Positions 1,161 to 54,360 are shown, counted from the first letter of the whole stretch. The stretch: 54,360 nucleotides of DNA, filler included, from Dimargaris cristalligena (GCA_003614675.1; 2 parts of 2 records of this genome joined end to end with filler, not necessarily neighbours in it); one strand, 5' to 3'. Translations and numbers: made by a program. The notes: a model not told the origin generated them from the letters alone.

Positions 1161-1603
1161 GTCGTATACTCCATATTTACCCTATTCGAAGTGACCAATA
1201 CGGAACATTGTTTTTTTATATAAAAAGCTGTTAGATTCTTTAACAGTAATGTCTTTACTGATTTAGTGTCCCCAGTTTTTAATATTCGGACCAAACCGTT
1301 AAGTTGTTCCACCTCGGTCGCTTCGGGCTGGCTATACTGACGACCACTCCACCTCCCACAAAGAATCTCGCCATACAGCGTTTTTTATTGTTCGGTTCGG
1401 GGCTCACATTTAGTACCCGTCCGACGTCTTTTCATAACTATCCCAGACTCTGCTCCGAGTTCTTCGCCGATATAAGGCGGCTCGCCCCAACCTTTTAATC
1501 TTCCGCCCCCTCTCTCCGTCTTGACTTTTCTGTATTTCTATTAGCTTAAGGTCATCGGTACGCTGACCATCCCCTTTTTTGAGCTCTCCTCATCGCGTGC
1601 CCC

Positions 1604-31946: not shown

Positions 31947-33545
31947 GCGTCGATGGAGAAAGGACTACGGTCCGTATTTTACTATCTCCCCCTCCCACTC
32001 TTTATACTCGACATATTCAACATTACTCCCCCCCAACCCACTTCTCTTTCTAAAGCTACAGTAGCTCCTGTGATTGATTTCTTATATGTTCTTGACTATA
32101 TATTTACATATAATAATAATAATACTACTACTAGCTATAGTTATATTCGTTACATCCCGGATTACCTTGTTTTTTATATTATTTTACTGTTTACTCGACC
32201 TACCAAATATATAAATAATCCATTTTCCCCTGTAACTGAAACTGGTAGTAAAAGTCACTCATTTTCGCCATCCCCCATATATAAATATAACTATATATTT
32301 ATACCTTCACGATAGTCCGTAATGTTGCAATAGCCGTATTCTTATTACCGTCTAGCCGAGCGTAGGATCAGCTGGCATATACTGCTTTAAAGGGCCTAAA
32401 CCCTTCTCGGGTATCTGCGATTTTTCTATTATCCCTCTAATATTTTTCTCCTTCTATTACACGTTCTCCCGTACACTCACTCACCCACTCATTTACACAC
32501 ACCCATTTGTTGTCGTCCGCTCTGCCAGTCGTCCCCTCCTTTCATCCCTTTTTCCCTTGGCCCATTTTCTCCCACCATTTGTGATGTCGCCCGCCGCATT
32601 TTTATTCCCACGTAAAAGTTGGCCAACATGGACACGCACCCGTGTACGTGAATGGGCCCGACTGAATGTGGGTAAGTGGGTGTGGTCCCCCCTCCTCCCC
32701 TTCCCATACACTCACAGCCATAAAAATACCAACCTGTGCAGTGGCGATTGTATCTGTGCTGGCATAGTGGCGCCTGTAATAATTGACGTTGTTCAGTCGT
32801 AATGATGCCTTCGTCACTTTCGCTTATTGGATTATTTATTAGTAGGAATGCCCTGTGGCGGGGATTGTGGGTCCACTTTGGGGAGTTTCCCCTGTTTAAC
32901 TGGGATTCCACTCTCCCTCCCCCCCCTGGTCGCCTTCCCCCGATATGACTCTTGTTGATATTAATTCAGAAGGTAGGATTCAAGAGAATAGCGATTTATT
33001 AGGTTATGATACTGGGAAGGGGAAACTGAAGATATAGGACCTGTCCTAAAAGGGAAATTATTAACACAAGAGGTCGAAAATGGGGGAGGGAAACGGCAGT
33101 CTAAAAGGAGACCCATCGATGGCAAAGTAGCGAGATTACGAAGGAGACAAGTGTCGATAGCGGGACTAGGTCCATTTTCCCCATTAGCCCCAACCTTTCA
33201 GAGGTGGGTAGATATAGAAAAATAGATATATAGAGGAGGGATATATTCGATAATGTAATGTCAATCAAACCAGGGTCAGAGTCAAGCGGGAGTACTTTTA
33301 ATGTTTACTATTCAATGCCCTTGATTATACATTGGTTATTTTTTAAAAAAAGACGGATGGGTGAGTAGAGGTGGGTAAGTGGACGAGTGGTGTACGGAGT
33401 ATGGTAGGGGGGAGAGCGCCATAGACCTGCTTAGATCGTCCGATAACGATACTAATACCCAAACCTAACCCAAGCCCGTCTCTTCGAGTGAGAATGCAGG
33501 TGGGGTGAGTATTATATATGTATTTTTCGTTTGATTATGTTCTTT

Positions 33546-33869
33546 TTAAAAGCGACACTGGATGTACATGACGTCCGGCTGGATCAGCTGAACCTCGATA
33601 TCGAAGATGGGGTATTCCTCCTCCAGGAAATCGAGGAAGTAATGGTAGCCGGCTTCCGAAGTCAGAATGTGCGTGGCCTGGTTGAGAATAGAGGTGTCGC
33701 TCATCCGGTGGGCCCAATCGTCGAGCGGGGGCGGGTAGACCGTGACTCGACCGGCACGAATAATGAATACGATTTGCCGGATGTTGCTTTTGAAGCCTTC
33801 GACGGAGATATCCAGGACGGCGCGGGCCAGGGACTCGGGGGGCTGGTAGATAAGGGGCAGAACGTGCAT
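33546..33869 (-). CDS. Small hypothetical protein (107 aa from ATG 33869)
   Basis: GC-rich coding-like island with globular composition (MHVLPLIYQPPESLARAVLDISVEGF...), ACC-ATG context, low-complexity non-coding flanks. Confidence 0.6.
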   Translation of the reverse strand: MHVLPLIYQPPESLARAVLDISVEGFKSNIRQIVFIIRAGRVTVYPPPLDDWAHRMSDTSILNQATHILTSEAGYHYFLDFLEEEYPIFDIEVQLIQPDVMYIQCRF

Positions 33870-35466
33870 GGTGGAGTGTGATGGAGTAGTGGGTACTATG
33901 GGGTAGAGGTAGGTATGGGAGTGGAAGTGGGACGGAGGAGGGGGGGTGTTGGTCAAGAGGAGTGACAAAAGTAGCCGAGACTGAGGGGAAGGGAGAAGTG
34001 GTATAAATGGACGGGGGAGGAGTTGTACGTATGGCTTATTGAATGGGTGGCTCAAAGGAGTCAGCGGGACTTTAAGAATCCTGGAAAAAATAATAATCAC
34101 CGAAGATAGGCTGTTGGATCAGACCCAATTTTGAACGGCCAGGCTGTAAATTAATGAATCAGATCCAGGTGTGGAAGCGAGTGAACGGCCCGAATACAAC
34201 ACAGCCTGATGAACAACTGGGAACTGACAGTGTAAATAATAGTGTAGCGTAGCTTGGGGTTAGAAGGTTGGCGTATGGGGGGACGGGCGTGGGTAATCGG
34301 CGATACGAGGATGAAGGGACGAGGTAAAAGAAGGGAAGGGAAAGGTCAAACCAAAGCCTGTTATATAGAGGTAGGCAAGTCAGACAGGGTGAGCATGAAT
34401 AAACGAATGTTAACTTGGAAGGGCCGGTTGGGGAGGGGGGTGGGCTTATTTATAGCCATGCGTCAGACCTGAGCTAAACGCGATTCGAGTAGGATTCCAC
34501 AAGAGGAGGAAAAAATCAGAGAGAGGACAAGCAAGCATACACCCGTGGCCTCCTTCTCCTCTCTCTGATTTTTGCTTGGCTTTTCTTTAAAAAAATTGAC
34601 CAGGTATACCTGGACATAACAGTATTTTTTAGTGCCATACCAGTTTGCTGGCCTGGAGGGAGAATGGCCAACGGGAGGTGCAGGGCCGTTCTCCCGAAGA
34701 CGCCATCACCCCCGCATATAGCATATAGAGCAAACGCATCGGTTATATAGCGCATATATCGTCCCCATCGCATATACCACCTATAGTGGGTCCTCCTTTC
34801 CATGGACTTATTCCGAGTGGTGGCATAATGCACATTCGGTACGGGATTGTATAGTACTGGTGTGGGTTGGGTTGGAGTGGAGTGGAGTGGGAGAACAGGG
34901 AAAGCGTAAAGGGTGTGTGTTGTGTGGACTACAGCAAGGAAAATGTAAATTAAAGGGTAGGAAGCGAAGGATCTAAAGCTACAGCCGCCCTGAAGTGATG
35001 TGTGGCATAGGATAAAGGCTACCCCGGTCCCATTCGCCAGCAATGTCTGCTGCATGCTGAATGTAGCCCTCAAATAGGGCTAGTGAATCCCTTTTCCACC
35101 GCTCTTCTCCTCCTCCTCCTCCTCCATTTCCCGCCCACTTTACGCCTGTCCTTCTCCCCCTTCTTCGGTACCTCTCCTCCGCATAATGGCCACCCAGCCG
35201 CAGTTGGGCAGGTTTATTTAGATGTGGCTTCACCCCCAATCCCGCGGCACGGTATTATTTTTCTCTTAACTTACCTGGTGATGGTCATACATTAACCTCT
35301 CCCTCCGACCGCCGCCTTCTTTCCCGTTCGCTTGCTTTCCCGGACTTGCCAATATTCCCTTCACCCCCGTGTACTTATTCCGGGGGGAGGGCGGACTCTT
35401 TGGAGGTGATGGCTGTGTTTCACCGGTCACTGTCCGGTGCGTAAACCCCGGGGGGGAGGGTGAGTA

Positions 35467-35539
35467 TAGTCACTAAATGCGGGTAAGGGTAGTATTTTAG
35501 TCGCTAAATGCGGGTAAGAGAGGTATTTTAGTCACTAAA
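35467..35539 (+). repeat. 31-bp tandem repeat, about 2.4 copies, upstream of DMC1
   Basis: TAGTCACTAAATGCGGGTAAGGGTAGTATTT / TAGTCGCTAAATGCGGGTAAGAGAGGTATTT / TAGTCACTAAA. Confidence 0.9.
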
Positions 35540-35993
35540 CCATGCTTTTCAACTACATAAAAGACTACGTAATACTCCGCCAAATAATCTCAACTCTATG
35601 CGCATTCAATCACCCAAGCGGCATGGCATACACCCGAAGCTAGTCCATGTCCATTAGTGAATGATATCTCTAAGCAAAAGTGCGTGGTCACTCAATGCGT
35701 CCCACCAAATTCTTCCCGCCATAAAAATATATGCTCACTGTGATCTGGTCTATATAAACCATGCCGACCCGGGGGACCCCGGTTATGCCACTACTTCACT
35801 TTCCTGTTTAATTCCTAGACCCACATATTGTTAAATTTAAATTTAATCCTCCGTGAGCATATCTCTAGTACAAACCCTCTATTTACCCTATAGTTACCTG
35901 CATCGTACCTAACCTTTCAGGCAGTAGTGTTATCGTGGCCCCATCTACACTCCCCGTCCACTATACCGCATTCAATTTGGCCTGATATATACC

Positions 35994-38900
35994 ATGGATG
36001 CCTCTCAGTCGGTTGCGTCTCAAGTGGAGTTGGTTCATGAATCAGTCAGCGATACCGAAGTTGATGAGGTGAGCCTGCCCAGAGGCCTGCACTTTTTACA
36101 CCCCCCCCCCTATTATTAATTGTAGAATAAATATTATATATATATATATCATTCGCTTCATTGGAAAAGTACCCAAACCCCTTTTGGTTGCGGCTATCCA
36201 TTCCCGAGATACGCCGTCTCCCACCCGTTTTCGGCTAGGGGGAGTGGGGAGGGGGAAAAGAAGGCTTGTTGATCAGACCAACCCTCTGGATGAATGCCCA
36301 CCATCTCATCTCAGCTTCTCCACCCCCCTCGCCCAGTCTCTTCATCACGCTCTGGTTCGCTCTCTTCGCACCCTTTCCCATCACCACGGCAGTAACGGAG
36401 GGGTTGGGGTGGTACATTAATAAATGAGCTCTTAATTAACCCGTCATTTATTCCATCACACGGTCGTTGGTATCCGGATCGGTCCTCAGGATTATATTGA
36501 AATAGAAACTCTCGCTGATCAGGGCATCAATGCCGCTGACATCCAGAAACTTAAGGCTTCCGGTATTTGCACTGTAAAGGCAGGTTTTTGTTTCATATAT
36601 ATTTCCCCTTCCCTCCCACGACCTCATCAGTCACCCGGCCCTTGTTTAAGCGTAAACAGCATGGCTACTTGTATATTATAGACTATACCCACCATTAATA
36701 TTACTTTCACATACCTGACTCTCCCGTGTCTAAATATTCCCTCCGAAATGGGCTTGCATCAACCCCATCCACAACCCAATGACCCCCATACCTAGGCCGT
36801 CCAGATGTCGACCAAGCGAATGCTCATTAAAATAAAAGGATTGTCGGAAGCAAAAGTCGATAAGTTGAAGGAGGCGGCCAATAAACTAATGGTAAGAGTT
36901 CTTCGTCTGGATTGCCCACACCGACTGTACTCGAATTCGGATACCCGTGACCTCCTTGTAATAATTTCTTTAAAAAGGAATACATTTCACCAGCACAATG
37001 GCCTCGCCACTGACTCCTAACCTTGTCCTCTGATCCAATACGCCCCCGGAACTCTTCAGGATTGTGGTTTTATTACCGGCCTCGAGTATTCAGTCCGACG
37101 CCAGCGGGTCATGAAAATAGGCACGGGGTCGGTGGAGCTCGACAAACTTCTAGGTGGTGGTATTGAGACCATGGCCATCACAGAGGTGTTTGGCGAATTT
37201 CGGACCGGGAAAACCCAACTAGGTCATACTTTGTGCGTGACCGTGCAGCTACCGACGAACATGGGCGGCGGCCATGGCAAGGTAAATTTGACCCTCCCCT
37301 TTTCTACTAATGTAATTTTGCTACGATAACCCGAAAGACGGCCATCGACATGTATGCTGACGAGGTACAGCGTGTTGATTAAGTCGGGTCTACCCTTTGG
37401 TTTAGCAAATCTAGCTGACCGTTTGCTGCCAGGCCCCGGCCGAGTTACCTGTGCAAATTCACCACTTAACAGTCTAATATGGTTTCAGGTTAGCGGCCGT
37501 TGGATTGAGAGAAAAATATATATAATCCCAACCCGAATCCACCATTCTATGGATTACATTAGCTATACTATATTTTAATAGACCCTATGCACATCCAAAA
37601 ACTCTGCTGCATGACTACTTCTCTTAGCCACGGCAGTCTAGTCACCGCATGTGCGTGCATGGGTGCATGAGAAGGAGTCACTCATCAAATTGGCATACCA
37701 GAGTTTGGTCCATTTCCTGTTTATCTAACTTAATCACCCTGATTCTTCGCTGTCTTTCTGGTTGGTGGGGCCTCGCTATTCAACTTAGGCCGCGTTCATT
37801 GATACGGAGGGGACCTTTCGTCCCGACCGAATTCGGGCCATTGCGGAACGCTACGAATTAGATCCCGAGTTAGTGCTGGATAATCTTATCTACGCCCGGG
37901 CGTTTAATTCCGAACACCAAATGGACCTAATCACCATGGTGTCCGCCAAATTCGCCGAGGAGAAGGGCGTATACAAGCTACTGGTCAGTCCTCCTCCTTA
38001 TGAACTCTTAGTTTGAGAGAACACCCATGTAAAAACCCCGTCATGCTGGCCTACTTTTATTAGCATGGGCAGCGCAATGGAGTCCCCCTTTGGCTGCCCC
38101 TCTCCATAGGTTGCACATTGATAAACCAACCCCAACCACTTTACATTTTCTTTTGTTTATTCTTCCTTACCTTCACACCTGGTTGGGTTATAATACTGAA
38201 TCACGTCTGAATTGGTTTCCACTGGTGGCGGAACACTGGCCCATACACCAGGTGGTGGACAGTATTATTTCACTGTTCCGGACCGATTTTTGCGGTCGGG
38301 GGGAGCTCAGTGAGCGGCAACAAAAACTCAACACCATGCTGTCACGGCTGATGAAAATAGCAGAGGAATTTAATGTGGCCGTGTATATTACGAATCAGGT
38401 AAACCACGAAAAAACGGAAATTGCCCAAGCACTAAACCTAAATACGGACGAATGGCGTACCGACGTAGTACACCTCCCCTAACTGTGTGCATGCGTAAAA
38501 TCTGCTTTGTTTGGGGTGATCATTCAGTAATCCTTGAACCAACTTATGCGGTGTATTATATGTTTTTTTTTAAAAAAAAAACTTACGGGAATTTGTGGTT
38601 GTAAACCAATAGATTTGCTCCGACCCAGGCGCGGGCATGTCCTTCGTAGCCGACCCTAAGAAACCGGTGGGCGGGCATGTACTGGCCCACGCGTAAGTGC
38701 ACTGGACGACTGGCACCGTGATTTGAAATTTGCAGAAATTAACAGATATGTATACTGATGAATCCTCCGATAATTTAACCCCATTTGGAACTGTCTGTGT
38801 ATCCTACCACCATGGCGCTGGTATAAACGTGTAGCTCGACTACCCGACTGAGCCTTCGCAAAGGTCGCGGTGAACAGCGCATTGCTAAATTATTCGATTC

Positions 38901-39166
38901 ACCCAATATGCCAGAAGCGGAGGCTGGTAAGTAGGCAACTTTCCATGTCATAGCCGTACTTTTCCCACCCCCTTGGTCTAAATGCTCAGCCACATTATGC
39001 ACGCAGATATGCTATATTTAAGACTTTACTGAGCATAATCATACTAATTGAAATTACCAACGATGCCATTGATTTGATGTGTTTTATTTTTTGCCCACCC
39101 AAATTAATACCATCGAAATTAGTGTACGCTCTTTCCGATGGCGGGGTCATTGATAGCAAGGAATAG
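35994..39166 (+). CDS. DMC1: Meiotic recombinase Dmc1; 9 exons (35994-36068, 36490-36579, 36796-36891, 37060-37281, 37789-37983, 38252-38398, 38613-38692, 38835-38926, 39123-39166), 346 aa
   Basis: [42 protein letters not shown]. Dmc1-diagnostic [10 protein letters not shown] and [11 protein letters not shown] (Rad51 has ARQMHL and GGNI). Confidence 0.93.
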
Positions 39167-39406
39167 TGGTATTCAACGTCTTCCGCCCACTTTATTCATT
39201 TGCTTGGGCCATAGTTTCAAACGAGTAACTCGTACTTCACCCGGCCTTATCGACAACTTGTTGATGTATCAGATATGCTATCCAATAACCATCGACATTA
39301 TTACAATGACAAAAAATCAGTCATTAAATACTCTTAGTAATTAGAAATAAAAATGGCACTGGTATCTCTTTCCTGATGCATTGGCTGGGTCTGGATCCAT
39401 TATTAA

Positions 39407-42400
39407 CTACGGTAGCTCGGTCATTTTCCGGCTGACGTGGTTGTACAGCGACTCAAACAGGGAGTAGTCCAGGCCATATACAAAAATAAAGGTGATCTGA
39501 ACACCCATTTGATGGACCCATGTGGCGGTCGTGGTCACTGTGGGTTCGCCCTCCTCATCCAATGGCGAGTTGGGGCAATGGGTGCGGGAAGGTTCCGGCT
39601 GATAGGGCGTGACTAGGATAGCCATCTGTGACATACTAGTGGCCTTCGGTAGGCTTTGGGTGGTTGCCTGGGGATGGTGGTGGTGGGTAGGAGGGGTGTT
39701 GTTGGATGGGGACTGGGCGAATTGCCGGCTCCGCCGCGCCCGCCGCGACCAAAAGGCCTCCGCAAACGATAGTCGATACAATAACCCTTCGTTAACCTCC
39801 GACTCAGTTTCCGGTAAATCAAGAACTTCTTCTGATGAAGTTTGAAGAGGTGCTCTCCAAAGAATTTCCATCCGAACTAGCCCTTCGGTGCGGAGGGGGG
39901 CCAATATACCATCCAGGATAGTCAGGGCTGACTCGTAGGGCCGCTTGGGCCACATGTGATACCACAGGTTGGGGTAGCGTATTGCCTTGCGCATGGTTCT
40001 ACGGACAACAGGACCATCAACCCAGCTCATGTCGTCAAGATTTCTATAGTTCAAGTCTAGAGTGGGCTCCTACCAGGAGTCGCGTTGGAGTTGTAGCAAT
40101 AAAAGGCATGATTTAGATTAGAATGGTTCAAGGTGGGGGGGGGTAGATTATGGTTTCGTTGAACGGGCTGTCCTACTGTATCACCCGGCTATTTATAATT
40201 GGGCTGGGCCTACCTTGATTAGCAACCGCTGTCCGGAAAACGACCAAATAAGAATCCAACGCCTGGTACTGCCCTGACAGATCTCGGTAAACCCATAATT
40301 ATGGATCTAAACGTGGCAAGTGCATGGATCAGAGACACAATGAAAGGCAAGTAGTGGTGGTATCGAGATCGGGACTAACGTTAACACCACGAAGACAAAA
40401 TATCCGGGCACCAGGTACATATAATACTTGCCAGCCTGGCCAAACTTTCGGTTAACTGGACTTACCTTATTTGTGTTTAAAACCTCGATGACTTTTTCAA
40501 GGGATGAGTATTTTCCCAGTAGAGAGGTATACCATCTGATAATATACAAATATATAATTAGTTGAGAAATACCTATTTTGGGGGGCTTTAGATAGTCTGC
40601 CATACCATATATCCCCTTTCTCGGCGCCCCTGAGTCGATATATCAATGTGTCGGATGATCACCTAGAACATCTAGCAGGTGGGAGGGTAATGTATCGAAA
40701 GACTTACTTGATACGAGTGGTCCAGCGAAGGCTCTCGGTTATCATTTGAATGACAAATAGCGCCTCACCACCTGGAGTGATCATTTCGTGGGGCTGACCC
40801 TCGCACACCTATTATTAGTTTCACATCGGTATGCATAGATTATCCATGGGACCCAGTCCATTGTGTTAGGATGTAATGCCCAGTTTAGGGTCAGTCTAGT
40901 CCGGAGGGGAAGTCCAAGCCGTTCCCAAAGGTTGCCTACACTTTGAGACATATTTTTTTTAGATACGATCAAGGTAGAGGAGTTAACCATAACCGTATAT
41001 ATATATATATATATATAGGCAATTTTAAAAATCCAATACTTACGGCAAAAGGGGGCAGGGCTTTGTTGTCGCGGAGTTCGCTGATCTCATCCGAACTGCC
41101 GTAAAATGGTGGATTGCACATGCAGAAATCAATCCTGATTGAAGGGTACGGTGTAATGGAAATACTGACCCTCGGTTAGTGTCTATTGCTACTATGTTAG
41201 CGAGGGGTCCCTCGTAGCTGTACCGTAGAGGTAGAGTAACGGTCGGTTCGTGGGGTATGGGTGTATCCAAGGTATTAATCAATTGACTTACTGTGTATCC
41301 CTATCCACGGAATCTAAGATGAGGGAGTTCAAAACGGTGGTAGGGTCAGGGTTTTCCAGAACTTGGATTTTCGACGACAGGCCATTGTTGGCCACGTTTT
41401 GGCGGGCGACTGAGATTGACGGTTTATGAATATCTATTATTATATCCAAATAAATAGTGTACAATTGGTCCGAATCATCTTAGTGATAAAGACATTCGCC
41501 CATGGGTGACTGGATTCCGCTGACTGGACCAGCCAACTAAAAATACACATGTAGTCAAATTTAACACTTGCCTGTTGCGATAAATTTCCAATGGGGGTTG
41601 AGGCGACATGCCAGCAGAGGATATATACAGGATGCGCCAGTCCCACTAGACAACGTGGATATAAATGGGCCAGACATGTAGCAAAATTCAACATTTAGCG
41701 TATTGCTTCAAGGGATTTAGAGAAATGGGCAATTCAGTTCCAATCTGACCCTTCATAACACATAATAATCAATAACAACAGCAAGTTAAAATAGTATTCT
41801 TACATATCTAGTCCAATCATCGACCGCTGCTCAATATGGCTCGAACCGGTACCGACAAGGTCTTCGATAACGTGTATATAGTCGAGACTGCCGTGTGGTA
41901 TGGGTGGCATTTGGATTGGCAAGCCAGGTAATGTTTAGTAGATGGTGCCTCGCGACTAGTTTGGCGTTTTGCGTAACAATTGAACCCCCAATGGAAGGGC
42001 GATTGCCCCCGGTTTATTCGCAAATAAAAACAGAGCAGTAACATAAACCTACCGATTGGGAATCTAACAACAATAGGGTATATTTAAAACAGAACAGCAC
42101 CCCAAAGTTAGGTCTCGGTGGTACACGCAGCCTATGCAATATGAATCCAGTGTGCAGGCGTTTGGCGCTGCAGGGCTTAGTGTAAGCCGGTGGATTCTTG
42201 GTTATACCAAAGTCGGACCTACCATGGGGCAGAGTGTGTGGCGTGGAATGTCGAGTGCCAAATTGAAGTCAGCCTTTAGCAGTGTTAATGTCAATTCCCT
42301 AACGAGTATTCAAACAATAGCATAGTAGCCCCTTATTAATGGGCAGTAGTAACTCTAAAGTATATTATACATACATATATCTGTACGTATACTAGTTTAT

Positions 42401-42872
42401 TTGGTGAAGTTTTTTTTTTAATTATGCGAACAATTCCGAAATACTGTACGGTAAATGTGGCGTCATTACGCTTGGGGAGGAGGTGGGGGAGAAGGTTCAG
42501 GGTGAATAGGGCTTACCTGACGCTTAGGGGATCTTGGAAATCAATGGTGGCTCGACCCGACGACGATATCCTGGTGCTAAATACAAATTCGGGCAGTAGG
42601 AAATGGGCAGGGTGACGTAGAGGCAATGCTGGTCAGCTATGGCTTGCCTTGGCCAAGTGAAACTGCGCTTCAATCGGGTGAACGTTAAATATATATATAT
42701 ATATATGGAATAAATGGTCTTACCGTTGGGCAAATTCGGGATACCGAGTAGCAAGGTCAGTAAAGTTGGGGGGATGCGCTCGATAGCGGTTTCGGCGATG
42801 GAGACGACTAGGAAGGGCGGTCTCTCCCTCGAAAGGGTCACTGAGTACTGTCGACGGAGGCAATGGGGGCAT
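39407..42872 (-). CDS. METTL16: U6 snRNA m6A methyltransferase METTL16/Mtl16 (RlmF family); 12 exons (42872-42724, 42576-42517, 42298-42223, 42063-42053, 41887-41804, 41645-41572, 41433-41292, 41134-41044, 40808-40708, 40535-40466, 40306-40214, 40069-39407), 537 aa
   Basis: Spliced translation gives LHRRNRYRAHPPNFTDLATRYPEF, IDFQDP, LCPMIPNRLDYIH, GLDIGTGASCIYPLL, DFCMCNPPFY, GGEALFV, WYTSLLGK, QGSTRRWILIWSF and C-terminal WSRRARR. Exon sum 1614 nt, in frame. Confidence 0.93.
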
Positions 42873-44457
42873 TGTATTAGAACGCCAGTGGAAGTCCGAA
42901 TGCCAATGGGCTACAAGTTATATTATTTTGAAGGGGAGGGAGGAGAGGGGGACAAAGGGAATCGCGAACCGACTATCGAATTCGAAACAAGCCGATGGTC
43001 AACTACAGCGGTTTGCAAATGTAGCCATGTAATAGGACCTAACTAACTCCCGAATGCCTCCAATCCCTCTCCCCCACTTGGACAAAGAACGCGACACGGA
43101 GGAGCTATACAGGCTTAAAGGTGTGTTAAGGAGTGGTGGGAGTATGAATATGGGGAGTACAAGAAAGAAAAACCCCCACGAGGGAGAATATGGCCAATGG
43201 TAATTGTCCATCCCTCCACCAACTGTGAATGTAACACAGCCAAGGTAGGTGGGCCAGTCGCTGTAGCGCCGCGATTCGGAGACGATTGATCTGGGAATTA
43301 ACTCGACGAAGACTCTTCCTTTACTATTCTTCTCAAACAACCTTGCCAAGCCGGAGACTCAAGGGCCTGGCCAATACTTTCTTCCAGGGTTTTTTCTCTC
43401 CCGGAGGATAGTTTACCCTGGGTACATTTAGGAATATTCAAGTCTGTGGGGACTTGCTGTTTTTGGCTGAGATGCGTACATTAAGTCTACAGCAGTGACG
43501 CTCTGCGGTCTATATGCATTGCAAATGGGGCTTGTAATATCCGGTTCAACGAGGTAGCTGGTTTGCGACCTGTGCCCATCGTAATTGAGGTATTATCCCG
43601 ACTTCCCACTCCAAGATTTAGGCATGGCAAGAGTATCGCTGGGCAGGCACTTCGTATGGTGCCTTGCAACCTAGCTAAGTGAATAACAGACCAAGAGATA
43701 ATACAGGATAAGGTGCCCCAGCCCACCCGACCCCCCTTTTCCCATTTTAGTTGCATCCTATAAATTTAATCCACTCCCATGGTGTCTACGGCGGGGGGCT
43801 GCAGTGGAGCAAAATGGTAGAATGGATAATCAGGTCCTGCGACCTTGGCTTGGTTACACAATGCCGGTGCCCCGGCGGAGTGCGGGTATTAGCCTCCCCC
43901 TATCCCCCATCACCATCCTTCCCCCCAATTCCCTACCCCCCTGTAGGTAGGTCGGCCAATTATGGCAATGACAAACTTGCACGGGGCTCCATTTTAACAG
44001 TGGAATGGGTTGGTGCAGGTAAGGGGGGAGGGTACCAAAAGACATTGCTACTCGCGGTTTACTACTACCATAGTCAGCAATGGCCAATAACCACTTAGAT
44101 TAGGTCATCAATGCGAATTATGGAGGTTTCACAATACCCCGTTTGGGAGGGACCGGGGACCCACCTTCATTAAACTATTGAAGAGGGTAGAACAAAATAG
44201 GAATACTGTAATATCTATGGAGGCGACAAAGTACAAGTGGAGGTGTGAAATAGGTATAGATATACTCACCTACGCCGCTCCCTCTCTCTCTCTCTATCCG
44301 CCCCCCACCCACCCTCTCACTCCATAATTCTCTGTATTAAATGTTGACTGCCCTCCAAAACTTGCTAGACGGTTATAATTTCACATTCTTCTATTATTAT
44401 TCAACTTCCATCCGCCCCCACCTCTCACTTGACAACCATAACTTGCTATTCACCATT

Positions 44458-45615
44458 ATGTACTACCGTATTGCACTGTGGAGTATACTGGCTGCTGGGG
44501 TGGTTGCTGCTAATCCGGAGCTGAACGACTCCACTCCGTTGACCACCCTTACCCGACGCTCGACCAACTCACCTATGACTAGTGGCGCACACGCAGCCGC
44601 CCTCGTTCGGCGCTCACCGGCTTTCTGGAACAGGTCCTCGAATCCCAATTCGGAAATGACGGGCGAAGAATCGACCGACCCGGCCAACAATTCCAGTGAG
44701 CCCTCCAATCATCCCCCTAAATTCATGAGTGCTGTAGGCCTCGGCAAAGTATATAGTCAATTCAATGACCCCGAACGAAAACATTTTATTCGGCGGTGGA
44801 AGAACAAATCCAAGCCCACCGAAGATACCTTCCAATCTGAGCCCAATGCCTTAAATGAACCGAGCACCGGGCCATTTGGGTCGGGCCAACAAGTTTTGGG
44901 TAACCTGCTTTTACTGGCTACCGGATATACACCATCGCCATCGAACGAAGACATAAGCGGGGACAAAGACCATGAGAACCTCTCCAATATCGATGACAAT
45001 GACACTACAGACTATGGCCATCAGAGTATGGGTGGTGGCTCCTCGGCGCCGCGTACCTCGGGTTATACGTACCTACCCACTGATAAGGAAGCTCCTCAAG
45101 ACCCAGGATATTCTATTTCTGATTCTACCTACCCCAATATCTACTTGAACCAAAAGGGAGAGCCTATCGAAAATGGCGTTCGCATGCATAGTGAAACAGC
45201 TCAGGACGCCGATAAGAACCAACGTGCCAAACAATGGTATGATGGTATAAGCTACATTAAAGTAAAGGATTCGGAGCCGTCGGATACGGGGGAGAACGAA
45301 TCATTGTCGCCATTGATTAATGGTAGTAGGGCTCCCGCCGATAAATTGGCTGAAGACGATCGCAATTATGATAGTGATGATGATGACGACGACGGCGATA
45401 ATGACCTTGCACTCTTGAAAAACTACAGTGACGGATACAATAAAAGCCCTACCTTGCTTTTATCACCAGTAGACAACATTCCCGGTGCCCACCAATTAGT
45501 TGGGGCTTTACCTTTACCCTCCCAGATGGAATCATCGGACAATAATGACGAAGCCGCCCCAACCGAACGTGCGAGGAAGAATTGGTGGGAACTCTCCACC
45601 TCTGAAAATAATTAA
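44458..45615 (+). CDS. Secreted low-complexity protein, paralog A (385 aa from ATG 44458), intronless
   Basis: Signal peptide MYYRIALWSILAAGVVAA, LTRRS and LVRRSP sites, S/N/D-rich body with acidic tract. Confidence 0.8.
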   Translation: MYYRIALWSILAAGVVAANPELNDSTPLTTLTRRSTNSPMTSGAHAAALVRRSPAFWNRSSNPNSEMTGEESTDPANNSSEPSNHPPKFMSAVGLGKVYSQFNDPERKHFIRRWKNKSKPTEDTFQSEPNALNEPSTGPFGSGQQVLGNLLLLATGYTPSPSNEDISGDKDHENLSNIDDNDTTDYGHQSMGGGSSAPRTSGYTYLPTDKEAPQDPGYSISDSTYPNIYLNQKGEPIENGVRMHSETAQDADKNQRAKQWYDGISYIKVKDSEPSDTGENESLSPLINGSRAPADKLAEDDRNYDSDDDDDDGDNDLALLKNYSDGYNKSPTLLLSPVDNIPGAHQLVGALPLPSQMESSDNNDEAAPTERARKNWWELSTSENN

Positions 45616-48028
45616 GCCACTCGATCTGTCGCCTAGGTCAACTAATGCGTAATTCCTGAAGCCGGGAAGGATTTCCACGAATACTGCTTTGGGGTATCGT
45701 CCCGTAGCCCTATTAGCCACACCAAAATGGACAGATACGTTGAACAGTGTCGGAGGAACGAATTAAGAAATGCCGTAGTATACAGAGCCGCGCCGCGTAA
45801 GGAGTAACCCCCCCCCCCCCAAAAAAAAACTATACCTTTTGAATCAATCTTGCGACGGTGGTAAGGAATCATCAGGCTATCGACGAACATAATAACAGAC
45901 GGAGCCTGATAAATGCGAAGTACTGGCTTTATTAGCGGTCGATACTCTTGCCATCTAAGCATCGTTATAAATAGTGGGGAGTAGGGAGTGGTTATGGATA
46001 TGGATATTTTTCTTTACCCCGAAGCCGTACTGTAGTTGGACTTGGCTACTTGATCGATTGAGCTTAATACTTGCCCAGCTGGCCTAACCACTGGCCCACT
46101 TGAGTTGAGTATGGAGCGATTATATTTATATTGCCGGCATTTGCTGTTGGGGTTGCCAGTTAAATAAGCATAGGAGTTAATTTTTTAGATTAGGCAATGG
46201 CCACCCCTTGTTGAATATTACTGTTTTGAATAAAACTTACTATAGATTATATGACCTAGTTTTGAAGTCGCCAAATGACTTTGAGTCGCTTATCCCCGAG
46301 TGAGGGCATATTTTCACTCTGCCGCACCCTATAACCGTGTAATTGGCCATCTAAGATGGGAAGTATATTAATCATATTGGTCTAAAAATGAAATGGCCGA
46401 ATACTAGTACAGTGGTTAATACCTAGGTCTAGGTACTTTTGTTTAAGTTGGGATTTTATGCAATGCTAATATATTATATGCGAAAAATCAGGCGGTGTGA
46501 TAAAATAAAAGGCATTTGAACCGTTAAACTCTGCGCCGATGATTATAGACCAAGTCTGTGACAGATGTCTCGCTAGTTTGAACAGCAATAAGGACGTGTA
46601 TGCCATTGCCATGTTAGCGACTCAATTTTTGAAAGCATGCATATAATTTCGCCTATCTAAACGAGTAGAGAAAGTATAACTGGCACACCTGCCATAAATA
46701 TATCAATAGACAAGTAGAATTGAGTACTTGATATGATTTTTGCTCTAAGGCCATGAAATAGGGATGAGGGCCCCATTATAGCCGGGCCGCTTCTTTTGTT
46801 TCGAGGCTGTTGATAGCCTCCATGACATATTTTTATTGGGATACCTGTCAATTGTCCATATTGCAACCTCATACGTTCCATTCCGGTCGGTTCTCCATAT
46901 AGCTGCCTCCTTGGCACAGTCGGCCGGTTACTCGAGAAATCAAGCACATGCAGTGACTTTTATCTGGTCACATCCGTCCTACTGGTCTAAATTTTGAAAA
47001 AAGGAATTCGGGAAATGAGGTAAGTATTACATTTGGGGTGTGCCCCAGACCAATATAGATCATGGGATTAGGACTGGGACTGGGACCCGCGGTTGAAATG
47101 CAGGGGGGGGGGCAGACCCCTAAAGGAATATCCTAGTAGACGACTTGATATACATTGGCTGATAGGAAACTGGCGCAATGAGAGACGATATGTAAGAAAC
47201 GAGGACATATCATTGACAATAGCTGCAATGTAATCGCTAAAACAAAAACTGGCGGGATTCACTGACGCATAGATTGGGCACAATTAACTTGGTAGTACCA
47301 ATTACCCGCCGTTTAGGTAATTGGGACCGATTAAAATAGTTACGGCTCAGCTCATAAATAAGCAACAGCAAAATAATTTGGATGGAAGGTGTAAGCGACT
47401 TCCAATTAAAAGTGGGCCGGGATAAAAACCATTGCGGGATGACTGACTGTGCCGGCCTGTCCATACACGTCCGGGGACCCGGTCCCAAAGATATTCATTG
47501 TCTGGGTCATCGACCGGACCTAGCATCGTTTAAGCCTCGGCTTGAAGTGGAAGGAGGGGAATGAGGATGAGAAGATATAAGTGGTGGGGCTTTTGAACCA
47601 ATAACCGACTAAGGCATATGCGCGCCTTTAGTATGCATTTGCTGTGCCCGTAAAGCGATTACTATCATTGATAATGGCAATTGGCCAATAACTAAAGCAA
47701 CACCCTCATTACCCATGCACCACACATAACTGGTATTACCCCCATGTCCCGGGGGATTCGTAAGCACATATATAAATATCCGTCCCTGCGCCCCATATGT
47801 TGCACTAGACCAACCAGCTTTGTTATATTGTCTTTTGTAGTTTATCCAGTTTGGTCTATTCGTTTCCCGATTATTTATAGCTTCCCGTTCTTTTGGTCCA
47901 CAATTTCTAACCGTTTAACTCTTTCCATCAATTAGTACCCCTCCGCTCGTATTACTCGATATAGGGTATTAGCTATAATAGCCTAGGCTTGCTGTGTCCT
48001 TCGTTTCTCCCATTACCGGCCCGTAACA

Positions 48029-49216
48029 ATGTATTACCATGTTAATGTGGTATCTAGCGCCGTAGTGACGACGGCCATGTTCGCCGGCTCGGCTTTAGCT
48101 ACCTCTATCCCCACGGATGTCCCTGGGACTAGTCAAGGTATGGCATTCAGCACCCCGATGCATCTGACGCGCCGTGCCCCCCTATTCTTAAACTGGCGGA
48201 GCAGTCAAGCTTCCATGACCCCTTCAACCACCGACCAAGCCTATAGTTACCTGGACAACTCGGCAAGTGACTCGGCTTTATACACGGAGACAGACTCTAT
48301 CAGCTCGACATCGACCCGTCGCCGAGACCGTATCGCCCAGCGTCTACCCAATAAAATTACCGGGGCCAATAAGTCCGTCTCCGAACGCAACTCGTTTCAA
48401 AAATGGCTTAGTAAAAGTCAAAGCGACTTGGCCGGGGTTAGTACGGTGGGGTCAACCGACAAGCCATTCACGACCTCCAGTAGTTGGAGTCAGAGCAATG
48501 AGTTTAAACCCCCCTCCATCGATGACATCTCCTTGTCTGAGAACTACCACGCCCCCGATGACAGCCGCATTGGCTCCGATACTGTGGGCCAATCCGGTGG
48601 CAATGACCTGAATTGGAGTAATTTTTTCCAAGGCCCTCATGAAGATGATGACGAGGACGATGGTGGTGATTATAATAGCTACGGGTTCAATCGTGACTTC
48701 CCCGATAGTACGATATCAACGAAAAATTCCGAGCAGAACCAGGTTGAACTTACACCAGAAGAGCTTAAGCAAGAGAAGCGCAAAAGAAGAAGTCTGAAGA
48801 ATCAAGAGGAGCTTGAAAAAGCGGCAGCGCGTTATCATCATGCCAACATGAACGACTACGATAAACCTCCCATCGGATATCCGCTTTATGCCGGCCACGC
48901 CGAAACTAGGTCGACATCGGCAAACGTGAACCAACAAACGAAGGAAAGCGGCGCTGCCATTTTACCCGATACCCCCGTGCCGGATCTCACCAACGACGAT
49001 GACAATGACGATGAATTTTTCGATGCTGAAGATGGTAGTACTTGGCCTAACTATCAGTCGGAAGCTCATGATTACTCGTCTAAGCACCCTTCCTTACCCG
49101 GTTATAATAGCCCAGTGTTGAAGAATAACCGTGCTGCAAACAACTATAGTCCGATCAGTGAGCCTGGCTTGACTAATCATGATGATGAGAACACTTGGTA
49201 TATCGATGACCCTTAA
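48029..49216 (+). CDS. Secreted low-complexity protein, paralog B (395 aa), intronless, with FFAT motif
   Basis: Signal peptide MYYHVNVVSSAVVTTAMFAGSALA, HLTRRAP, DDDNDDEFFDAED. TATA-like TATAAAT at about 47771. Confidence 0.85.
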   Translation: MYYHVNVVSSAVVTTAMFAGSALATSIPTDVPGTSQGMAFSTPMHLTRRAPLFLNWRSSQASMTPSTTDQAYSYLDNSASDSALYTETDSISSTSTRRRDRIAQRLPNKITGANKSVSERNSFQKWLSKSQSDLAGVSTVGSTDKPFTTSSSWSQSNEFKPPSIDDISLSENYHAPDDSRIGSDTVGQSGGNDLNWSNFFQGPHEDDDEDDGGDYNSYGFNRDFPDSTISTKNSEQNQVELTPEELKQEKRKRRSLKNQEELEKAAARYHHANMNDYDKPPIGYPLYAGHAETRSTSANVNQQTKESGAAILPDTPVPDLTNDDDNDDEFFDAEDGSTWPNYQSEAHDYSSKHPSLPGYNSPVLKNNRAANNYSPISEPGLTNHDDENTWYIDDP

Positions 49217-50054
49217 TCCCCTAGGACTTACACCGAGACCCCCGCCACAAAGAGTATCCGCTTCTAAGTTGCGGTTTCAGTGCTACCCAGTGCTATACTA
49301 AAACTTCTTTTATAGGATTCCAACCCAGGGCCCGGTAGCCGAACCTATTCACACTATTAACTTTTTTATCTCTCAGGGAAATGGTTTCTGGGAACCTGTC
49401 GTTCCCAAATCTATACCAACTAGCCCCTCACCGCTTTTTTATTCAGATACCTCTAACGACTTCTAAAACCCGTAGTTGATCGTCAAAAATTAGTTTAACA
49501 GGTTCACTATTAGCTGTGGAATAGCCCTATCGAATTCCGGCCCTCACCTGCCGATATTCACAATAAATATAAATTGGTATCTATTTTTATTTTATTTTTT
49601 TAGGAAGGTTTGACGACAATGGCCTAATTGTCAATGTGTATTTGGAAAAGGTTCGGGGCAGTTGTAGAATGATAAATTGGTCTGGGGAGAAAGGGGTTAT
49701 TGGCTAAAATTCATTATCTCCCCTATTTCACATACAGTATTGTATTCTAAATGCTCTTCAGCTTGGTCAAATACCGCCCAATACACACGTTTAGCACTTG
49801 GGCAAGAGGGCGAGTGGGCCACCATATGGCCAATACATTCTAGCTGATGTTTCACTAATGGTCGCATCTTAACCTGAGTATCATCCCTAAGAAAAATGGG
49901 TTTTCACTGAAAGGTATGTAATTTTCGTGTATTGAGTTGGCGACATGCTAGTTCCGATAATAACATGCTGCTTCTATAGCCGAACGGCTTGTAATATAAT
50001 AGCTTGACTCAATTTTCCCCATATGCCTTAGACCATTATTTTCATAACAAGATA

Positions 50055-50190
50055 TCGGTGAAATTCAGCGCAGCTGTATAGGGGTTTAAGTAACGTATAT
50101 AGGAAAATAGTAGAGTGTTTCATTTTTAACCAGTAGGTTCGGCCTCATACGACGAGTTTTTCGCTATATAGTCTAGTTGAATTCCTCCCA
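50055..50190 (+). mobile_element. MITE-like element, copy 4 (diverged, about 136 bp)
   Basis: TA|TCGGTGAAATTCAGCGCAGCTGTATAGGGG...TTTTTCGCTATATAGTCTAGTTGAATTCCTCCCA|TG. Colinear with the other copies. Confidence 0.75.
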
Positions 50191-52144
50191 TGCCCAAGAA
50201 CCATCAATTAGAAAATTACTGGACAGTTTCATTGGGGGGGAGTAGTGCTTCTGAAAGGAACGTTCCTTTTATTCAAGTGATAACTACGTGCAACCCCCCC
50301 CCCTGTGTCGCAACTTTCCAATGGAAAGGGCGACTTATATTTCTAGGGCACTATTGTCTAGAAACACGCAATATCTATTGGTAACATAATGGTCAAGAGA
50401 CCTTTCGAAGAACATACCTAGCGAAACGGCCCATATAAGTAATCACGGCTAACTGAGTATTCTTTTCTATACGAGCCTTCCCATTTAATATGCATTGGTA
50501 ATAAACTTGCACCAGGGTGAGTATAAACCGACGGATGGCTACACCGCCAATAGCCACCGCGGGAGAGACCACTGTACTCGTAGTTTCCATAGGCCGGTAT
50601 GGGTACATACTGCATTTACTAGAGATATTGTGGTTACATTGGTGGGGCACCTGGAGAGTGGTCGATGAATCGGACCAGCCCGTTCCTGGCATGACTGGGC
50701 TATAGGGCGTGGTGATGAGTTGGGCTGTGTCTTCCATTCCCCCCTTCCACCTAATCCCACTATATACATGTATGACAAGATTGGGGGTACCAGAAAGAAG
50801 AAAAGGTGATAGACAGCACTAAGAACACGCTAAACCCCTCAGTGTTGGCCGATTTGCAAACCGACCTCGGGTTTGTCATGAGGGCCTTGGCCGAGCACTA
50901 TGTGTCGCTAGTTCGCTAAAGGGCCACATAAATGTTAAGTCTTTGCGTGGTAACAACCTGCAAATCAATTTTATTATATCTCGGTAGTGGCTGTTGATAC
51001 TACCGGTTTTCCTATGGCACCCAATAGTGAGCAGGTATACTAAGAGGAAGTGGGAGGAGGGGGAGAGGGCGGAGGAGAAAGGGAAAAAGAGTAGAATGCC
51101 ATATTTTTTTCTGAGTCTTAACTGGGCCTTGAAAACACAAGTGTTACACACACATTTCCATGAATAGACAACAGGGTGGGAGTGCAAAGGCGAAATAAAA
51201 CCAAGCTAAGAACCCATAGTTACCCCTATCTGCCCTAAATCGAGATGCAAGTCGTTCCTAGTGGCAAATGCCGCCCTGGTGTTGGCGATGCTCAATACAC
51301 TTTTACAAAATATTGGTGGTATTGAAGTTGGTACAATAGTGCGAGGGGAGTTAATATTCGCAAATAAGAGGTCGCGTCGAATAAATTCTGTGTTATACAG
51401 CTGGGCGAAGCGCCCACCTCATCGTAAAACCATATTTATTCTGCTGTTCGGTATGAGCTCTAATGGATAATTGTCCAGGGACCGAATATAGCCACGCATT
51501 GGTTCACTCTACATTTATTGGATTTTTTCGGCCCGGGGAATTCTGCTGGCTCTTCTTTTGACAAGGGCAGCGGAGAAGGGAAGAAGGAAAGGATGGAAAA
51601 GGAGAGGTTTGATCGGGAGGGCTTAGGGAGCGGTTACACTTGTGGAACCGCGTCGAGACTAGAAGGTGCAACCGCCAATATGACAAATCCATTTCTCGTA
51701 CAGCCAAACCCGACCACCAATATACAGTTAATAGTCTACAATAGTTCGGCGTGTATCAAATGAAGAAGGCGGAAAATGGGTTGACTTTGTAATGCCAAAA
51801 TAGGGGATAGTCCACCTAAATCCCCCCCCCTCGCCCATGGGCGCCTATTCCTCTCCTACTACCACAGCTGAAGCTACTTGGCCAGTCCTGGGCATCCGAG
51901 TGCAAATGCATATAAAACTGCGCCGGTGCCCTGCAGAAATCGCTACACCCGACTTGTCTTTCTCGTTTATTTCCAACCAGCGTTTCTTTTTGAGATATTT
52001 CTTTCCGCCGCCCTCCTAACTCCCCGCCCCATATTCCCTCCATCCTTTCCACTCAGCGCCTCTTCTTTGTCTAGAGTTTGGGGCATATTCCCATACCATT
52101 GTATTTCTGTCTACCCCCAATTTGTTTAGTGTTGGCCTACCACG

Positions 52145-53241
52145 ATGCATTATCGTTTCGGCGTATTGTCTAGCGCGCTGGTGGCGTCGACTGTGTTCGC
52201 TGGCTCGGCTCTAGCGACCCCTACTCCCGCGGGTGCTCTTGGGGCCAGTCGAGGTATGCCTCCCGGTACCCCAATGTATCTGACGCGCCGTGCTCCCTCA
52301 CATTCATCCTGGTGGTCCAGTGGGACTGACATGACGACCACCGACCAGTCCAGGCAAGGCATCGACTTCTCTCGGTACAACAACAACGAGGAAGAGGGTA
52401 CTACCAGCGCCCCACCAGCCCGCCATCGCGATCGTGTGCGTGATTTCATTAACCGAAAGTTGAAAGGGACCGACAAGCCTGATTCAAAGCGTAGCCAATT
52501 TTATAATGCTATAAAATCCAACCTGAGGAGCTCAGACAATACGAGCACGGCGGAATCCAGTAGCTTGAACCAGGACGACAAGTTGATGGTAAACACCCCC
52601 ATCAACCCCGTCACCTCTTCGGTTGACAACTACGCCCCCGAAAGCAATAGTGTGCACCCAGATGCAACGATGCAAGCTAATAGGGTTCGTGAAGATTGGG
52701 AAGACTTTTTCCAGAGTCCTACTAGCACTGCCTCATTCCCCTTTACCGAAAACTCCGACAAGGTTGAGGTCGAACCAGCAATGTTGGGAGGAGTCAATAA
52801 TAACCAACACAAGGAGAAACATATTCCTATCGTTGTACGACCCCCCCCCCCGTGCCCGTCTATGCCGATGAATACGACCCCCTTACCTATGGTACCAATC
52901 CCAGCCACGTTAACTACCCGGAATATCAGAGATTAGATGGTGTGGCCCAACACTATGGCTTTGGCGATGGAGGGGTCTCCCACGGTGGTGCAAGTTTTGG
53001 AAAATCGTTTAAGAAATCCCTCGAACTCACTGAGACGTACCTCTCCCAATGGAATTCAAACCCGGATTGCTATTCCCCTAAGCTGGCGTCTTCTATTCAA
53101 TCAAATGACCACATTGTATCAAGAGCATCCACGAAGAATTACAATAACGATAACGGTGATAATGAAGACAATGAGTTTTTCGATGCTTTAAGTGAGGCAC
53201 ACGTTGAATACCCCATGTCGCCCAGAGTTATTCCTAACTAA
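52145..53241 (+). CDS. Secreted low-complexity protein, paralog C, with a frameshift at a C11 tract (52841-52851); FFAT motif in the distal frame
   Basis: Signal peptide MHYRFGVLSSALVASTVFAGSALA, YLTRRAP. Colinear with paralog B (RHRDRV/RRRDRI, WEDFFQ/WSNFFQ, PVYA/PLYA, EFFDA). ORFs 52145-52936 and 52852-53241 join if the C run is 9 or 12 nt. Confidence 0.75.
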
Positions 53242-54360
53242 ATATCCCAAATTAGGCGGCGTCTGCTGTTCCCTACCAATATAGTATTGAGGTTCCGATT
53301 GGGGGGCGCTTTCACCTTTATATGATTATTTTCGCCATAGACTTTTCGATTGTAACCGATAAACCTGGAATTTGTTTGTTTCCTAAGGTTCATTTTTTTT
53401 CTTTCAAATATGGGTCCTCCTACCTAGCACGCTCCATCTGTTTAAGCCGCTTAGTAGTGGCTTCATTTTATTATTGAGGTTTTCACAATACATACATCTA
53501 TATATATATATATATATATAGTCGATAGAGGTGACCAGGTGAGCTGTTTCTGATGGTAACGATACTTCATGGACAATGGGGTTATTTGATGGGTTAGTCA
53601 TCGAGTTTTAGGGGGCCTGGTATCCGAAGCCGAAAACTTGGAGGATAACATCATTGTAGTGATCGACCGGTCCAAAGGGAAGTGAATCAGGGACGAGGCT
53701 TCTTGTGCTCCCTATTTACCCCTTGGGTCAATCCATTCCGAACCCCGTGAAACTCGGCGGAATTAATAGTATAGTAACAATAAACCTAATGAAATCCAAT
53801 GGACCCACCCCTGATCCACACCGCGGGGAAATAGGGAGTATATATATCCAATCGCACAGTTGGACTGGTCTTATTACATCGGAAACTAACCCACCCTCCC
53901 TCCCACATGAATAACCATAGTGGACCCCCTTCCAGGCACACATACACCCACACATTTCACCTCCGAATTCTCCTTTTTAGTACATTGGAGATTTCAATAA
54001 GGGAGCTCTTATTGATTGCAGTTGATCGAAATCATCCACCACGATATCCTGGTCAAGGCAGGGATAGTCATCAGATAAAGGGGCCCACTACATTACAATA
54101 CGTCATTCATTATAGTACCTCCATTAACTAAAAAAAATGGCGGGGTTATTAGTGGTGTTCTAAGTATTTCTCTCGACCCCTGGTTCATGAGGGCCCCAAT
54201 TCATGAATTCCCGCAGTAGGGCGTAAAAGGCACCTCCATATGTACTGCCATTTAGGCTGGTCGATTAATGTGCTTTATATTTAATATACTCCAAACATCT
54301 GACCCGCTAGGGCAATGGGGGGGGGGGGGTTCAAAATGACATGAATTGGGATAGGGAGGG

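Follow-up and report, generated by a model that had tools for sequence, protein, structure and literature searches.

Two neighboring genes of the fungus Dimargaris cristalligena, paralogs B and C, were found to encode a canonical FFAT motif (a pair of phenylalanines within an acidic tract) behind N-termini that resemble signal peptides. Together with a third paralog, A, they stand in tandem on the plus strand of the window, i.e. the stretch of 54,360 bases, filler included, that was analyzed here and to which all coordinates refer. Judged from their sequences, B and C may be FFAT-mimic effectors acting on the Scs2/VAP proteins of a host cell. This is the reading that we favor, tentatively and with less than even confidence.

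FFAT Motifs in Paralogs B and C

The acidic tract and core of B (NDDDNDD-EFFDAED) are encoded at 48992..49033 on the plus strand, with the core at 49013-49033, and translate to NDDDNDDEFFDAED. The corresponding segment of C (DNGDNEDN-EFFDALSE) lies at 53149..53196 on the same strand, with the core at 53173-53196, and translates to DNGDNEDNEFFDALSE. Both cores, EFFDAED in B and EFFDALS(E) in C, are close to E-F-F-D-A-x-E. When all 54,360 bases were searched in six frames with the pattern [DE][FY][FY][DE][AC], only 2 matches were obtained. These were the motifs of B and C, at exactly the positions that an initial annotation of this DNA had given. Among the six residues upstream of the core, 5/6 are aspartate or glutamate in B and 3/6 in C, the rest being asparagine or glycine. 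An acidic tract was scored for both proteins, B lying above the set cut-off of at least 4/6 and C below it. With core and tract both matched, the assignment of EFFDA after an acidic tract to the canonical FFAT class, likewise made in the initial annotation, was upheld. By likeness to solved structures, a motif of this class would probably dock on an MSP domain, a statement that leaves topology unsettled.

The probability of a chance occurrence was judged by explicit patterns and by composition shuffles, 20,000 for each protein. The exact string EFFDA arose in 3/20,000 shuffles of B and in 2/20,000 of C, i.e. at about 1e-4 per protein, and a looser core in 72/20,000 and 24/20,000, respectively. 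A core preceded by at least 4/6 acidic residues was not produced in any shuffle of either protein (0/20,000 for B and 0/20,000 for C). The relaxed FFAT regular expression of the TgROP1 paper was non-specific on these sequences, giving 3 hits in B versus 1.3 expected and 1 hit in C versus 0.76 expected.

A second aromatic block, W-x-x-F-F-Q-x-P, is shared by B and C and has acidic residues adjoining it. It reads WSNFFQGP in B (48614..48637, plus strand), where HEDDDEDD follows, and WEDFFQSP in C (52697..52720, plus strand), where RED precedes. The block is a poor FFAT core; it resembles acidic-aromatic motifs of cytosolic proteins, such as the Atg8-interacting W-x-x-[LIVF]. The EFFDA sites and the W-x-x-F-F-Q-x-P blocks together account for all FF pairs in the two proteins.

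Conservation of the Motif Block

BLASTP aligned B and C over residues 1-203 only (35% identity, E=5e-25), and the alignable N-terminal half ends at the W-x-x-F-F-Q-x-P block. Past residue 203, only tiny high-scoring segment pairs (HSPs) were returned, including DEFFDA/NEFFDA with 5/6 identities. Because this HSP alone has E=13, the match is by itself not significant as homology. A Smith-Waterman alignment of the C-terminal halves scored 48 versus 35 +/- 6 for shuffled sequences, a score reached in 67/2000 shuffles. In a collinear global alignment, the nonsynonymous divergence (dN) was 0.18 in the 12-codon motif block, 0.76 in the C-terminal half, and 0.33 in the signal plus pro region, and the synonymous divergence (dS) was saturated throughout. 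The 36 nucleotides of DNA over the motif are 78% identical. In 6 comparisons, the paralog regions yielded no shared promoter or intergenic DNA apart from one match of 16 nt between the A-B spacer and the DNA that follows C. Within a C-terminal half that otherwise defies alignment, the motif block is the island under the strongest constraint, as the initial annotation had anticipated in ranking it among the best conserved blocks of diverged C-termini. Because dN is low in the block, dS is saturated, and the flanks share nothing, we conclude from this one paralog pair that the block has been held by selection.

The same comparison bears on the possibility that the motif has no function, EFFDA being a chance string in a low-complexity acidic tail, not yet decayed in two paralogs, or B and C being decaying orphan genes. 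A marginal similarity of the C-terminal halves and a non-significant HSP, both drawn from a single paralog comparison, would suit such a history, and so would the broken frame of C described below. The relaxed pattern is non-specific in B and C, and a scan of many windows turns up rare strings. We regard a functionless motif as rather improbable nonetheless, since the low dN of the block persists where dS is saturated and non-coding similarity is gone, and since an exact motif is expected so rarely by chance. Moreover, the open reading frames (ORFs) remain open for 330-395 codons, the sequence of B is the same in two assemblies, and the model of C from the other assembly reads through.

Gene Models of the Three Paralogs

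Paralog A (44458..45615, plus strand) encodes 385 aa plus stop in a single open frame and is identical to protein P0124. An allele in the other assembly, P0002, differs at 3/385 residues (N103H, L150P, and L319P). One of them, L319P, lies in LALLKNY, which A has in place of the FFAT region. Paralog B (48029..49216, plus strand) is a single ORF of 395 aa plus stop, identical to P0001, which is present on 2 contigs, and it does not differ between the two assemblies.

Paralog C (52145..53241, plus strand) consists of an N-terminal ORF and an FFAT-bearing C-terminal frame that are joined only by way of a frame change at a poly-C tract. In this window, the ORF with the signal-peptide-like segment (52145-52936) terminates at a stop codon at 52936, and the motif is encoded in a shifted frame. 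The switch between the two frames falls on a run of 11 C (52841..52851, plus strand). The initial annotation had credited C with both a signal peptide and the motif; a signal-peptide-like segment and the motif are present, but here they lie in different frames. Two database models of C circumvent the break. In P0003 (333 aa), which could be reproduced exactly from the window sequence, 52835-52929 is excised as an intron. In P0125 (343 aa), which stems from the other assembly, the same stretch is read in frame as VVRPPPVPVYADEY... across the poly-C tract, with ...VVRPPPVPVYADEYDPLTYGTNPSHVNYPEYQRLDG... in the model, implying that the length of the tract differs in that assembly. Because P0125 is in frame there, the intron of P0003 was judged less likely than a difference in homopolymer length, and we take it as the predictor's patch over that difference. 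The difference itself may be a fault of assembly or a polymorphism between strains by which C is switched off.

NEDNEFFDAL is retained by both models of C. Right after EFFDAL, P0125 splices to a downstream exon, by which the final residues are dropped. This terminal splice was considered less likely than the unspliced end (LSEAHVEY...), because B, with SEAHDY after its motif, shares SEAH-x-Y in the directly following position. There was no sign of a further exon or of a C-terminal anchor 3' of the stops of A, B, and C in three-frame translations, which were inspected without a hydrophobicity scan.

Predicted Entry into the Secretory Pathway

Signal peptides were judged by hand rules, namely a hydrophobic core followed by a site of the A-L-A|T type, together with the Kyte-Doolittle scale, the -3/-1 rule, and the positive-inside rule. 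Signal-peptide-like segments were recognized by these heuristics on the plus strand at 44458..44511 in A (MYYRIALWSILAAGVVAA), at 48029..48100 in B (MYYHVNVVSSAVVTTAMFAGSALA, with A-L-A before T25), and at 52145..52216 in C (MHYRFGVLSSALVASTVFAGSALA). All three proteins begin with M-[YH]-Y-[RH], and the short n-region is followed by a core of 14-20 residues rich in V, A, L, S, and T. Small residues occupy positions -3 and -1 (...GSALA|T in B and C, ...VVAA|N in A). In all three, the sole basic residue in the vicinity of the core precedes it, and in A and B the core is followed by an acidic residue. The hydrophobicity of the cores is moderate, the best 19-residue Kyte-Doolittle means being 1.2-1.7. 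A second hydrophobic segment was not found in A, B, or C; in the C-terminal piece of C, the best 19-residue mean was 0.18. By classical rules, such N-termini mark a cleavable signal peptide and not an anchor with a cytosolic C-terminus, and we assign them heuristically as cleavable signal peptides.

Kex2 acts in the Golgi and late secretory pathway. Putative Kex2-type sites were found on the plus strand in A as LTRR (44548-44559) and LVRR (44602-44613), in B as LTRR (48164..48175; P4 Leu, P2 and P1 Arg; ~25 residues past the predicted signal-peptide cut), and in C as LTRR (52280..52291). L-x-R-R is thus conserved in all three proteins, at residues 31-52. Because Kex2 acts late in the secretory pathway, this conservation gives an independent hint that the chains enter it. 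The claim of the initial annotation that B and C begin with signal peptides stands as to the hydrophobic core, the A-L-A|T site, and the downstream L-x-R-R, at the level of hand rules. We infer that A, B, and C are secreted and processed by Kex2.

L-x-R-R also matches the Kex2 preference for an aliphatic residue or Leu at P4, Lys or Arg at P2, and Arg at P1 that the cited passages of the SnTox3 preprint describe for pro-domain effectors (bioRxiv 10.1101/2020.05.27.120113). Together with the signal peptides assigned by hand rules, A, B, and C therefore display the sequence features of Kex2-processed pro-domain (K2PP) effectors. Known K2PP effectors (SnTox3, ToxA, and the SIX proteins), however, are folded, mostly disulfide-bonded proteins of plant pathogens, whereas the chains considered here are disordered and nearly free of cysteine and their cleavage is a prediction.

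An internal polybasic run, EKRKRRS, occurs only in B (residues ~249-254) and is aligned with QHKEKH in C. It could represent extra Kex2 sites that would free the FFAT-bearing C-terminal ~140 residues, or a signal resembling one for nuclear localization.

The N-termini would have to be read differently if B and C were not secreted at all but were adaptors of the parasite itself, anchored by the N-terminal segment in one of its membranes, with a cytosolic C-terminus whose FFAT motif links to its own endoplasmic reticulum (ER). Genuine FFAT motifs normally reside in an organism's own cytosol-facing proteins, and RMD3/PTPIP51, to which B and C would then be comparable, is a membrane-anchored mitochondrial FFAT protein. 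Hydrophobic stretches of 20 residues are indeed present in B and C, but they are only moderately hydrophobic, are rich in Ser, Thr, Gly, and Ala, and end at cleavage sites of the A-x-A type, and the core of A measures only ~14 residues. The basic residue before the core and, in A and B, the acidic residue after it favor a translocated C-terminus, and the conserved L-x-R-R would have no role in the cytosol. An adaptor of this kind therefore appears quite improbable.

Composition, Disorder, and Family Range

Past the putative pro-segment, the net charge is -29 in A, -27 in B, and -12 in C, and cysteines number 0, 0, and 1, respectively. Residues that promote disorder account for 63-69% of the chains. 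The ESM Atlas model of B had a mean predicted local distance difference test (pLDDT) of 0.41 and a predicted template modeling score (pTM) of 0.16, both whole-protein figures. The chain of B is accordingly predicted to be disordered, in which case the motif would be accessible; as far as a whole-protein pLDDT can tell, it lies in an unstructured region, as is usual for FFAT motifs. For B, the ESM Atlas provided no usable feature hit, and all structural neighbors had template modeling (TM) scores of at most 0.23.

The three chains differ in their content of N-glycosylation sequons (N-x-S/T). A has 11 versus 5.5 expected, a number reached in 105/10,000 shuffles, whereas B has 3 versus 6.0 expected and C has 1 versus 5.05 expected, a number as low being found in 214/10,000 shuffles. 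Sequon-poor B and C beside a sequon-rich A would fit a functional split, a weak point made post hoc on three proteins.

Alternatively, A, B, and C may be secreted proteins, acidic and disordered, whose site of action lies outside the host cytoplasm, e.g. in the parasite wall, on the spore surface, or in the haustorial matrix. EFFDA and W-x-x-F-F-Q-x-P would then serve some other partner, and the likeness to FFAT would be coincidental. The lumen of the secretory pathway is where a signal-peptide-like N-terminus and a Kex2-type site would put the chain, and A has the same architecture with an excess of sequons and without an FF core. In addition, FFAT-like strings in non-cytoplasmic proteins are a recognized class of false positives. 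A conserved block with five fixed FFAT residues plus an acidic tract is improbable as a coincidence at ~1e-4 per protein, however, and B and C are depleted of sequons. We are not aware of any partner in the lumen or outside the cell that would bind such a motif, and to our knowledge none has been described for FFAT. On balance, we consider a purely extracellular role unlikely, although by no means far-fetched.

In Pfam, A, B, and the N-terminal ORF of C matched no family above the cut-off, the best matches, with E=0.56 and E=0.16, staying below the gathering score. Word-indexed homolog searches recovered only B itself with B (1 hit among 3025 candidates) and only its own two models with C (2 hits among 2941 candidates). 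With an HMMER profile, an exhaustive search of 1.84 billion representatives yielded 3 proteins at E<=0.001, and all of them were A, B, and C. A metagenome scan with a single-protein query gave 585 pattern matches, 0 of which were confirmed by tblastn. No members of the family other than A, B, and C were thus found in these searches. Because sequenced relatives with annotated proteomes exist, it must be either confined to the species or evolving too fast for recognition.

Host Contact and Known FFAT Mimics

The source organism was placed with the help of another gene of the window. The nearest matches of the ORF for DNA polymerase epsilon subunit B were Tieghemiomyces parasiticus (72%), Dimargaris xerosporica (68%), D. 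verticillata (65%), and Dispira simplex (65%), and hits after these four Dimargaritales had at most 50% identity. Because this protein is closest to Dimargaritales, the window belongs to that order. In agreement, the A allele P0002 and both C models are named in the database as hypothetical proteins of Dimargaris cristalligena. The cited passages describe Dimargaritales as haustorial mycoparasites with Mucorales and some Ascomycota as hosts (PMC3734964) and name an appressorium and a biotrophic haustorium as their infection structures (PMC9866270), and D. cristalligena appears in a list of obligate biotrophic mycoparasites (PMC6784888). Placement, database names, and haustorial lifestyle together identify the producer of B and C as an organism in intimate contact with host cells, as is to be demanded of the source of an FFAT-mimic effector. 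The initial annotation had ventured delivery through a haustorium from the sequence alone, and this risky guess at the lifestyle was borne out.

FFAT mimicry is already established among pathogens. As is proposed for B and C, Chlamydia IncV, a protein of a pathogen, recruits host VAP by mimicking FFAT, but it is bacterial, sits in the inclusion membrane by means of transmembrane segments, and works as a tether. IncV reportedly has a two-motif architecture.

Eukaryotic precedents come from Toxoplasma. TgROP1 mimics the FFAT motif, binds host VAPA/VAPB, and tethers the host ER to the vacuole, and TgVIP1 is a dense-granule protein with an FFAT motif (PMC12669048). They resemble the proposed B and C effectors in that a eukaryotic parasite makes them in its own secretory pathway, in that they come to lie toward the host cytosol, and in that an FFAT or FFAT-like motif serves to bind host VAPA/VAPB. 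In contrast, they are discharged from rhoptries or dense granules, and their host cell is an animal cell. TgROP1 sits on the parasitophorous vacuole membrane as a tether and uses the relaxed motif DDTFHDALQE, whereas B and C have no anchor, carry a canonical EFFDA, belong to a fungus that attacks a fungus, and show no sequence homology to TgROP1.

The Xanthomonas effector XopM is a soluble type III effector in which two cooperating FFAT motifs bind plant VAP and bring the effector to the membrane system of the host (PMC11631713). Like B and C, it is soluble and without similarity to known proteins, and its two motifs recall the one canonical FFAT plus second conserved FF block seen here. Unlike them, it is bacterial and reaches a plant host by type III secretion, and the second block of B and C (FFQxP) is a poor FFAT core.

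The cellular FFAT proteins OSBP/Osh, CERT, Opi1, and RMD3/PTPIP51 share with B and C an acidic tract and an EFFDA-x-E-like core in a disordered region. They differ in being cytosolic or cytosol-facing, in acting within the same cell, and in possessing lipid-transfer or other domains, whereas A, B, and C have no Pfam domain and carry secretory signals.

A full-text literature search, with supplementary tables outside its scope, found no fungal or oomycete FFAT effector. This agrees with the statement in the initial annotation that no fungal family of FFAT-mimic effectors had been described, although the kind is established outside fungi by IncV, XopM, TgROP1, and TgVIP1. With FFAT-mimic effectors already known from Chlamydia, Xanthomonas, and Toxoplasma, a fungal case would, as far as this search shows, be new.

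A Tentative Model for B and C as Effectors

In the reading that we favor, A, B, and C would each be made as a pre-pro-protein with a cleavable signal peptide and a pro-segment of ~25 residues that ends in L-x-R-R and is cut by Kex2 in the Golgi. The mature chains of A, B, and C would comprise ~300-350 residues and be acidic, almost free of cysteine, and intrinsically disordered. B and C would be released at the host interface and, in a purely conjectural step, reach the cytoplasm of the mucoralean host cell. There the FFAT motif near their C-termini might dock them on the MSP domain of Scs2/VAP at the host ER, a step that is equally conjectural. They could be recruited to ER contact sites of the host or compete with host FFAT proteins. 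Because they are soluble and anchorless, they would not be tethers, and the tethering of host ER that the initial annotation had included is abandoned for want of a membrane anchor in B and C. In a fuller scenario, to which we give slightly less credence, B and C would be the first fungal and the first fungus-on-fungus FFAT mimics, delivered through the haustorium, occupying host Scs2/VAP, and so rewiring or starving the ER contacts and lipid traffic of the host to the parasite's advantage, with A as a glycosylated sister remaining in the matrix.

The host-cytoplasm reading receives weight because a coincidental motif is improbable, because secretory signals are present, because the lifestyle is haustorial, and because precedents exist. 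It is kept well below an even chance because A lacks the motif, C is frame-broken, an anchor is missing, and orthologs were not found. These and several further observations weigh against it. A has no FF core, although the acidic run SDDDDDDGDND is found at the corresponding place. The frame of C is broken within this window. Conservation of the motif is seen in the single paralog pair B/C, with E=13 for the BLAST segment that contains it. The hydrophobic segment of B and C is confined to the N-terminus, so that an anchor of the IncV/TgROP1 tether type is lacking. No orthologs of the family were detected in the 1.84 billion representatives. Many fungal effectors are small and rich in cysteine, whereas A, B, and C are long and nearly free of it. 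In the producing cell, the predicted chain would be lumenal or extracellular and thus not exposed to the cytoplasm, so that exposure would have to come about in the host cell, and we know of no translocation signal for Dimargaritales. A two-component translocation signature put forward for rusts in a preprint was set aside as lineage-specific and unreviewed. Finally, non-cytoplasmic proteins do carry high-scoring FFAT-like strings, and Mikitova and Levine filter their candidates on cytoplasmic location.

For early-diverging mycoparasites, effector biology is a nearly empty field. The main text of the D. cristalligena genome paper contains no word beginning with "effector," "secret," or "haustori" (PMC6784888), and a Kickxellomycotina comparison mentions effectors in passing only (PMC9866270). 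If B and C do act on host Scs2/VAP, the hijacking of VAP at ER contact sites would have arisen in fungi too, beyond a bacterium that infects animals, another that infects plants, and an apicomplexan. Exchange of FF for AA would then provide a mutable handle on whether and how haustorial fungi move proteins into the host cytoplasm, and the host, itself a fungus, has an Scs2 pathway that is open to yeast tools. Should the motif be inert, it would serve as a warning that canonical cytosolic motifs can persist conserved in secreted disordered proteins.

Other Features of the Window

The spacers of the A/B/C cluster measure 2.4-2.9 kb, and genes are sparser here than in the first 26 kb of the window. 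Few long ORFs were seen at 31000-44000, upstream of the cluster. In addition to the polymerase subunit, the window contains genes for a DEAD-box/SPB4-type helicase and an intron-split CoA-transferase III as well as a multi-exon TH1/NELF-like gene. An SNF2-family ATPase with a DUF7607 domain is encoded at 1583-8602 on the plus strand in an open frame of 2339 codons. The GC content of this region is 0.55, versus 0.43-0.51 elsewhere in the window. A 164-aa ORF on the minus strand (16170-16664) has a strongly signal-peptide-like N-terminus, MFKLTYFLLALPAIGMLAPTLLG..., and gave no Pfam match; by its sequence, it may encode another small secreted orphan.

Two similar GACCCGC...poly-G elements occur at 47084-47112 and 54301-54329, with 76% identity over 29 nt. 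The former lies ~0.9 kb upstream of B and the latter ~1.1 kb downstream of C, near the end of the window, and a fourth paralog past that end is conceivable.

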